A stretch of 56,027 bases of DNA, the filler included, from Squatina squatina (lineage: Eukaryota): assembly GCA_031763465.1 (NCBI GenBank). It is 3 parts of 3 records of this genome, joined end to end, with 100 filler letters (N's around TTAATTAATTAA, not from the genome) between each part and the next. Parts side by side here need not be neighbours in the genome. Positions count along the whole stretch, not along the records: positions 16,969 to 34,086 come from JARFOE010000194.1; 2 more parts are not named here. One strand, given 5' to 3'. Both the position numbers and the translations under genes were made by a program. This document shows, one piece after another, positions 23,470 through 25,180 of the stretch; positions within the stretch are counted from its first letter, which is position 1; each line of letters opens with the position of its first letter. Under the pieces are notes generated by a model that was not told where the DNA came from, did no database searches, and worked only from the letters and a program-made list of their open reading frames with translations.

Positions 23470-23643
23470 TCAGGGTGAAAGGCCTATATCCAGGGCTATT
23501 TTTGGGTTGTCAGTTATCTTGCGGGGGTTTCTCTGAAGACGTTGGACAGTTTTTCCGAAGATGTTGGGACAGTTTTTCCAGGCCAGTATGTACGGTCTTG
23601 AAAGGTCAGTCAGGCAGAAGGAGCTGCCACGCTCAATGTAAAC
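23470..23643 (-). CDS. Possible terminal exon of a small nested gene (partner of 25061-25180)
   Basis: ttttaag|GTT, phase 0, VYIERGSSFCLTDLSRPYILAWKNCPNIFGK..DIGLSP*. AATAAA on the minus strand at 22953-22958. Acceptor is weak and no homology was recognised. Confidence 0.25.
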   Translation of the reverse strand, partial: VYIERGSSFCLTDLSRPYILAWKNCPNIFGKTVQRLQRNPRKITDNPKIALDIGLSP

Positions 23644-24435
23644 CTTAAAAGTCAGCAAGCACTTATGTGGGAATGATTAGAGGGATGATCCAATCGCTGT
23701 AGGTCAAAGTGGACCTCAAATCTGGATGGGGTTAGAGGACAACAATAAAACAACTCTGAAGACTGAAACTTGAGAACAAAGGTTTTGTTAGGCTTGGTTC
23801 TTCTTTGAAGGAAGTTTTACTCTACAAGCTTTAGAACCAAGACAGATTTTCAACTTTTGTCCAGCAAACAGAAAAATGACGACTCATGAGCTTTTCCTCA
23901 TCCAAGAGACGAGAAGTTTGCTGCTTAATAGCAAACAGAAAAAGTAATGAATGAGGCAATTTTTATAGCTCAATGAGGAAAGATCATCTCCTGGGATTTT
24001 CTCCCATAAAAGACAACTGCATCCCATTTATATTGAGGTTCAACAACCTTTGTTATGAAGCAAAATGGACATTAGAATTCTGCAATTGGATTGAACAGAC
24101 TAACCGTTTACCTGAAAAGGTCACTTAACTTCAAAGATTGATGCAGAGACATGTTACATTAATGGGAAACCTTTGAATGAAAAAAGGGGTGCGCCATGAC
24201 CTTTCTTGTGCTTTCCAGCTAACTCCTGTAGACCTTTTGTATTAAGCATTTCTGTATTGGCAATTCCGTATTAGTATTTAAAAACAACCATAAACAGTTA
24301 GCAAAGTTAAACCACCAACCATTATTCGTAAAGACCAAGCATTTTTGCACATCAATAATATTGTAACAATCTTACATCTGCACATTCTTCCAGTCAACTT
24401 TTCCCATCATAAATTGCTGAAAGACGCTCTATAAA

Positions 24436-24698
24436 TAGGGTGACCAGACATCCCGGTTTTTGAGGAAGTGTCCCGGTGTCCCGACAAAAGTGCTCAAATA
24501 TCCTGGTTTTTCATGCCCTCTCAACTGCGCATGTGCAGTCCAGGCGAAGAACGCAAAACACACGTGCAGTTCCGGATAGGACCAGGCTGCTCATGCATGC
24601 ACAGTCCCAGTCCCGGCGACAAATGCATTGCGCATGTACAGTTCCGGTGAAGAACGGTCTGCGTGTCCCAGTTTGGGACTCTTCCGATCTGGACACTA
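24436..24698. mobile_element. hAT-type (Blackjack-like) MITE, 263 bp
   Basis: TIRs tagggtgaccaga..tctggacacta. Perfect 8-bp TSD TCTATAAA at 24428-24435 and 24699-24706. Confidence 0.9.
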
Positions 24699-25060
24699 TC
24701 TATAAATGCAAGTCTTTTCTTGAGTGGCATCCATGGCTGCAACACCATCACTGGCAGGAAGGTGCAAATACAGCGTGACAAGTTTACATGGGCAGTTTGC
24801 ACTATAAATGTGGGGAGGGATTTAAAATGAAAATACAGAAGTCGGGGGGGTGGTGCGCAGAAGAGATGAGTTTGAAGTGAACTACACTTGGGAACTGGAA
24901 CTCCCCTCTGTGCCAGATGACCACCGAACAGATAGATGCAGGAGATTACATGGACCAGGGTCTGGCTGAACAGGAGGGGCAGTGGCTGAGTGTGCAACAA
25001 TGGGGGGGCCAAGCCCAGAGCGTGAGTAGTAAGATAGGGATAGAAAGCGCCCGTCCTAAC

Positions 25061-25180
25061 CTGCAGAGTGGCAATAAGAAACAGCAGGGCGCAGCAGCAC
25101 AAACAGTGCAACCAGAGGCGCCTGAGCCCGGTCCTGCCTCCGCGGCGCCGCTCTCCCCTCGGCCGCGGATCCCCGTCCAT
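25061..25180 (-). CDS. Candidate first coding exon: Arg-rich N-terminus plus Cys-rich signal anchor
   Basis: CpG-rich patch, GGAATGG start context, MDGDPRPRGERRRGGRTGLRRLWLHCLCCCALLFLIATLQ (40 codons), then CAG|GTTAGG donor. Confidence 0.5.

Follow-up and report, generated by a model that had tools for sequence, protein, structure and literature searches.

The 120-nt exon at positions 25061-25180 (minus strand) of the window, a stretch of 56,027 nt joined from three records of the Squatina squatina draft assembly GCA_031763465.1, is, on sequence comparison, almost certainly the first coding exon, with the start ATG, of the known gene FUT10 (POFUT3). It adjoins ABCG1, and this arrangement most likely arose through an assembly misjoin, a reading that we hold with moderate confidence. 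The first-pass annotation had presented the exon as unexplained and as the best novel candidate in the window; it is instead an already known part of FUT10. The finding is the annotation of the start of a known gene, and its placement points to a probable false join in this draft genome, with a caution for other orphan-exon findings in the Squatina genome that even a gap-free contig may not be trustworthy.

Structure of the exon

The segment that carries the exon comprises the following features.

25061..25180, minus strand: coding part of the FUT10 (POFUT3) first coding exon, residues 1-40, with basic cytosolic tail, signal-anchor helix and phase-0 donor, assigned by sequence comparison
25181..25202, minus strand: 22 nt 5' of the ATG, FUT10-like up to the end of the piece (tblastn with a Heterodontus FUT10 model reaches 25198)
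25203..25302, unstranded: assembly gap of 100 N (N run), which conceals the 5' end of the FUT10 segment

An ATG at 25180 (minus strand), with G at both −3 and +4, opens 40 codons that close with a CAG/GTTAGG donor in phase 0. The encoded peptide consists of an Arg/Gly-rich tail followed by LWLHCLCCCALLFLIATLQ, and its residues 22-40 have a mean Kyte-Doolittle hydropathy of 2.06. The strong-context ATG, the 40 codons, the Arg-rich tail and the phase-0 donor described in the first pass were all re-observed. A basic tail followed by a single hydrophobic helix is the pattern present in the 40-mer, as in FUT10/POFUT3 orthologues. The earlier proposal of a type II signal anchor was right about the tail and the hydrophobic segment, but the anchor belongs to FUT10/POFUT3 and not to ABCG1.

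The exon contains 11 CpG dinucleotides (GC 0.68, observed/expected 0.82), and the ratio is 0.53 over 500 nt (24703-25202) and 0.35 in the intron. The label "CpG-rich" given earlier thus holds within the exon but is local only. With the 100-N gap starting 22 nt upstream of the ATG, neither a promoter nor a CpG island can be judged. Translated in frame, 25181-25202 resembles the residues preceding the same Met in the Heterodontus FUT10 model; a search with this N-extended model was dominated by matches to repeats.

Comparison with shark FUT10

Compared with longer proteins, the 40-mer gave two matches among 43 candidates, both to shark FUT10 (E = 3.6e-12 and 7.5e-12). Whale shark FUT10 aligns over all 40 residues with 33 identical (83%), and the 40-residue N-terminus is 75-88% identical to 12 full-length FUT10 orthologues. 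The match depends on search settings: the N-terminus was missed by BLASTP against Carcharodon FUT10 and by default tblastn, and the 83% match appears with composition adjustment off.

We examined 23 FUT10 members: all 8 listed in one cluster and 15 of the 16 listed in another. The exon is carried by 16 of the 23, from 12 shark species, and all of these end it at TLQ; 14 align without gaps at 30-35 of 40 residues, while of the other two one contains an insertion and one covers the exon in part. The conservation in other sharks asked about earlier is therefore real, but as the N-terminus of FUT10. Seven members start elsewhere, and three of these diverge just before VVVELG, thereby marking the same intron. 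Such exon-skipping models, which are database predictions, hint that the exon may be internal. The ATG exon of human FUT10 is an internal exon.

The donor at 25061 stands at the conserved TLQ/V intron, with position and phase 0 as in shark FUT10. The same 40-residue N-terminus and TLQ/V intron are found in Rhincodon typus (XP_048457483.1) and Carcharodon carcharias (XP_041053494.1), and in the further comparators Cetorhinus maximus (XP_078411568.1) and Heterodontus francisci (XP_067892948.1). What sets the Squatina exon apart from these is its assembled position, and one otherwise invariant residue is changed, V37A, the sole such change in the exon peptide across the compared orthologues. Changed invariant columns number 1 of 23 in the exon; the remaining FUT10 pieces have 2 of 20, 0 of 55 and 2 of 113, and with 1 of 23 changed we regard the exon as undecayed.

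The other FUT10 exons found in the assembly lie elsewhere, at 61-99% identity to shark FUT10, and the gene is spread over four separate contigs. The next exon (VVVELG...) is on contig C83153 behind a phase-0 AG acceptor. Residues 131-201 are on C889520 and residues 253-412 on C1, at 86-89% identity to the reference orthologue and with no stop in the translated exon parts. The assembly search did not find residues 92-130, 203-252 and 413-488. The 159-residue piece at C1:1146547-1147026 has R at position 110, where 12 other sharks all have W, together with an I to V change. A FUT10 paralogue, probably FUT11/POFUT4, is represented by fragments on C1046531 and C19 that are 48-51% identical.

The shark FUT10 orthologue carries both GT10 Pfam domains, which it shares with human FUT10/POFUT3. 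Two reports describe the human protein as a GT10 enzyme (CAZy) that O-fucosylates EMI domains in the ER (PMC11949838; PMC11990869), and the former gives it an endogenous transmembrane domain and a site of action in the ER (PMC11949838). Alpha-3 fucosyltransferases are described as type II membrane proteins whose catalytic domain lies in the lumen (PMC3655985). The Squatina exon encodes the anchor part only, so that activity in the shark would be assigned by analogy.

ABCG1 and its neighbours

On the other side of the candidate junction lies ABCG1; upstream, beyond the gap, are UMODL1 and, likely, ZBTB21.

20956..21101, minus strand: ABCG1 exon, residues ~175-223, signature motif and Walker B
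21963..22013, minus strand: ABCG1 exon, residues ~158-175 (exon 5 in the first-pass count), phase 0 at both ends
25536..25793, minus strand: UMODL1 fibronectin type III exon on the next contig, a normal ABCG1 neighbour (15 of 15 matches named uromodulin-like 1)
28780..31140, plus strand: likely ZBTB21 (ZNF295) large coding exon in two pieces, 28780-29715 and 30229-31140, with a 512-N gap between

As reported in the first pass, the FUT10 exon shares contig and strand with ABCG1 exon 5; both lie on the minus strand of one gap-free piece (21752-25202), which maps to contig C194, and 21963-22013 was again read as phase 0. Four ABCG1 exons are present in the window (residues ~158-175, ~175-223, 528-569 and 569-623), 98-100% identical to shark ABCG1 (Chiloscyllium plagiosum XP_043557327.1, Cetorhinus maximus XP_078416688.1), and the coding sequence between residues 223 and 527 was not found in the window. 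Residues 1-74, 74-115 and 111-159 are on contigs C23204, C972829 and C754479, the last assigned to ABCG1 over ABCG4 by its residues. ABCG1 exon 4 is indeed absent between the FUT10 exon and exon 5, as had been remarked, but since exons 1-4 lie on other contigs and the scaffold is half N, its absence means nothing. Exons of a second ABCG1-like gene, presumably ABCG4, were seen on C612163, on C912415 and at C5:2291082-2292048 (63-90% identical).

FUT10 and ABCG1 are on different chromosomes in 11 of 11 shark species with both listed, and UMODL1 and ABCG1 are on one chromosome in 12 of 12 species, record lengths serving as a stand-in for chromosome identity in both comparisons. The Squatina scaffold keeps ZBTB21, UMODL1 and ABCG1 together. 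The second ZBTB21 piece matches ZNF295 directly (E = 2.2e-41 to PDB 1wjp), and the first piece (28780-29715) is, by its position, likely also ZBTB21. Six fibronectin type III repeats in Heterodontus UMODL1 match the UMODL1 exon; most UMODL1 proteins of sharks and rays have 1500-1850 residues. A search for synteny at the FUT10 home locus through the Mak16 and Tti2 families gave no matches, the controls being silent as well, and the 100 kb around the C1 exon were searched for FUT10 only.

A candidate junction at 22912

Between ABCG1 exon 5 and the FUT10 exon, two adjacent features mark a place where the two segments may meet.

22835..22902, minus strand: 3' part of a very high-copy shark repeat, its 5' part missing exactly at the A run
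22903..22958, minus strand: the sole AATAAA of the interval (22953-22958) and, 40 nt later, a run of 10 A (22903-22912); inferred candidate junction of FUT10 and ABCG1

By eye, the 5' part of the repeat is kept in 11 of 11 distinct other copies; a strict pattern for it flagged 8 of 12 other rows, two of the rows being one place. Runs of at least 10 A number 35 in 354 kb of partly overlapping loci, and only that at 22903-22912 has an AATAAA 10-45 nt upstream, at a chance rate of ~3%, although the pattern was spotted after looking and is hence weaker than it appears. One origin compatible with it is a join at TGG plus A, the short motif that both sides share, whether it arose in the library, during assembly or in the cell. 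Another is retroposition of an intron-polyadenylated RNA, whose 3' end the pattern would mark, as in a class 1 templated insertion.

Origin of the arrangement

We propose that the draft assembly joined a FUT10 piece to a piece of an ABCG1 intron. The join would lie at 22912, where FUT10-side DNA ending in TGG plus the A run meets the high-copy repeat with TGG plus A at the same point. In the animal, the phase-0 donor would splice to the VVVELG... exon now on C83153 and give the usual protein of ~488 residues, and ABCG1 would draw on exons 1-4 of its own. If it behaves like its human counterpart, the Squatina protein would be held in the ER membrane, its catalytic domain facing the lumen, and would add O-fucose to folded EMI domains.

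A misjoin is favored by the FUT10 exon being single copy by DNA and protein search, by its lack of decay, and by the separation of FUT10 from ABCG1 in other sharks. The make-up of the assembly points the same way. The 217 kb examined are 50% N and fall into 92 pieces of median length 971 nt, with 62 of 93 gaps exactly 100 N, a pattern suggestive of short-read contigs ordered on a reference; the gap-free piece 21752-25202 is the fourth longest of the 92, a weak point in the same direction. Against it, the exon and ABCG1 exon 5 lie within one gap-free piece, and no branch contig at the candidate junction was found among the contigs, whether for 22915-24435, for 22030-22830 or for the junction's own variant of the repeat copy. 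Neither a Hi-C ligation motif nor an adapter remnant marks a join: the piece contains one GANTANTC and no other ligation motif, and GANTANTC occurs 29 times in 197 kb against 49 expected. Contigs from a low-depth sequencing run, probably of DNA, match 24858-25007 with 0 differences and 25052-25202 with 1 difference and 71 more letters past the end; over 22031-24430 they give repeat cover only or none, neither bridging nor breaking the candidate junction. Moreover, the assembly gave no match for ~34% of the residues of FUT10 and ~21% of those of ABCG1, so that an original copy of the exon could be absent from it.

This last point also favors the principal alternative, that a FUT10 piece (the first coding exon and ~2.1 kb of intron) was truly copied into ABCG1 intron 4 and is silent there, its original missing from the assembly or collapsed. 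We regard such a stray copy as the main rival, somewhat less likely than the misjoin. A LINE could have retroposed an unspliced RNA that had been cleaved at the cryptic AATAAA, or the copy could stem from DNA repair or duplication where the two sequences share a short motif. The gap-free piece, the loss of the repeat's 5' part exactly at the A run, and the AATAAA 40 nt ahead of the 10-A run, seen at 1 of 35 such runs, are all as expected of it. Templated insertions from intronic RNA with a poly(A) signal and tail are described in PMC5110952; its class 1 shares with the present case a cryptic AATAAA, an A run, an intronic template and an A-rich insertion site, but the distance from signal to tail here is 40 nt against the 10-30 nt given there, and no donor copy was found. 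Only a single copy of the exon was seen, in an assembly that lacks 21-34% of the coding sequence, and it shows no decay. The TGG ahead of the A run is the repeat's own sequence, and a short-homology join, or a deletion with slippage at the A run, fits equally well. The 5' junction and any target-site duplication would be concealed by the gap at 25203. The more specific reading, that the insert in ABCG1 intron 4 is a LINE-made copy of an unspliced FUT10 RNA polyadenylated in an intron, and one of many gene fragments with exons scattered through the genome, we consider unlikely. If the join, and others like it, were shown to be real, the shark would be good for studying exon capture from intronic RNA as a source of new chimeric genes.

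The misjoin remains our preferred reading. It had been named in the first pass as an outcome that would count against a novel exon; it is now the likeliest explanation.

Proposed ABCG1 and microprotein products

Two products had been proposed for the exon in the first pass. In one, the exon would be an internal first exon of ABCG1, spliced in frame to exon 5; recast with the present assignment, a FUT10 exon truly lying in ABCG1 intron 4 would give a 527-residue protein lacking Walker A. The common strand, a good donor, the pyrimidine-rich acceptor of exon 5 and phase 0 at both sites speak for it, but phase 0 is the commonest intron phase and the phase match is thus weak. The model requires the arrangement to be real, as well as a promoter or acceptor that is not visible. 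Among the isoforms listed for 21 shark and ray ABCG1 proteins (15 of 22 and 6 of 6 listed), none starts with the 40-mer and all 21 retain Walker A, and no ABC transporter matches the 40-mer. The nucleotide-binding domain of ABCG proteins is not lumenal. A type II anchor would send the ABCG1 nucleotide-binding remnant into the ER lumen, against this topology, so that decay would be likelier than regulation and a working dominant-negative form is unlikely. No report of a FUT10-ABCG1 fusion was found within the partial literature coverage, nor any paper directly relevant to chimeric joins in shark assemblies, to first exons of ABCG1 or to the capture of gene fragments in sharks. We consider this ABCG1 product very improbable, and assign the same low standing to a retro-inserted intact anchor exon which, lying in the same orientation ahead of ABCG1 exon 5 with its phase-0 donor, could splice into a chimera.

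The other proposal was a nested 97-residue membrane microprotein that would join the exon to a second one and end at the AATAAA.

23470..23643, minus strand: proposed second exon of the microprotein, a 57-codon open frame, likely chance intron sequence

Both the 57-codon frame behind an AG and the single AATAAA (22953-22958) exist as described. In addition, one predicted FUT10 model from Chiloscyllium departs from the usual exon order directly behind TLQ, so that in predicted models the donor can reach other acceptors. The second exon, however, belongs to no Pfam family, and frames of this kind are common by chance: an AG followed by at least 57 open codons occurs in 82.5% of 200 dinucleotide shuffles of 22014-24520, and 15 of 191 AGs in the interval precede at least 57 open codons. 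The real stretch holds 6 sites of this type against a shuffle mean of 2, mostly AGs clustered at 23270-23466. The microprotein is the least probable of the readings considered, and would at best be an intron-polyadenylated short isoform of FUT10.

A 219-codon read-through frame (24521-25180, minus strand) runs through the donor and ends inside a MITE, and its 179 open codons after the donor are reached in 4 of 2000 shuffles. A search of 1.84 billion representatives returned no relatives of it and no Pfam family matched; the frame is probably due to chance, less probably an intron-retained form. Neither the exon nor the junction flank was found in scans of metagenomes, and Rfam gave no match in 20431-26653.

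Transposable elements in the interval

24436..24698, unstranded: multi-copy MITE with an 8-bp target-site duplication at 24699-24706 and 24428-24435

We take this element to be hAT-like from its 8-bp duplication. Its edge was considered as the place of the join and rejected, since both copies of the duplication are intact and a join there is unlikely. A second, related MITE with 31-nt internal repeats lies in opposite orientation at 21235-21492, within the intron that separates the two nucleotide-binding exons of ABCG1. The 12-mer at 24679-24690, which equals the start of the Illumina adapter, was likewise rejected as an adapter remnant; it is the MITE's own end and is exact in 8 of the 22 other copies printed. 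In two MITE copies the 12-mer is followed by C, giving the full 13-mer that adapter trimmers seek, and adapter trimming could thus cut genuine reads at the end of this MITE family.
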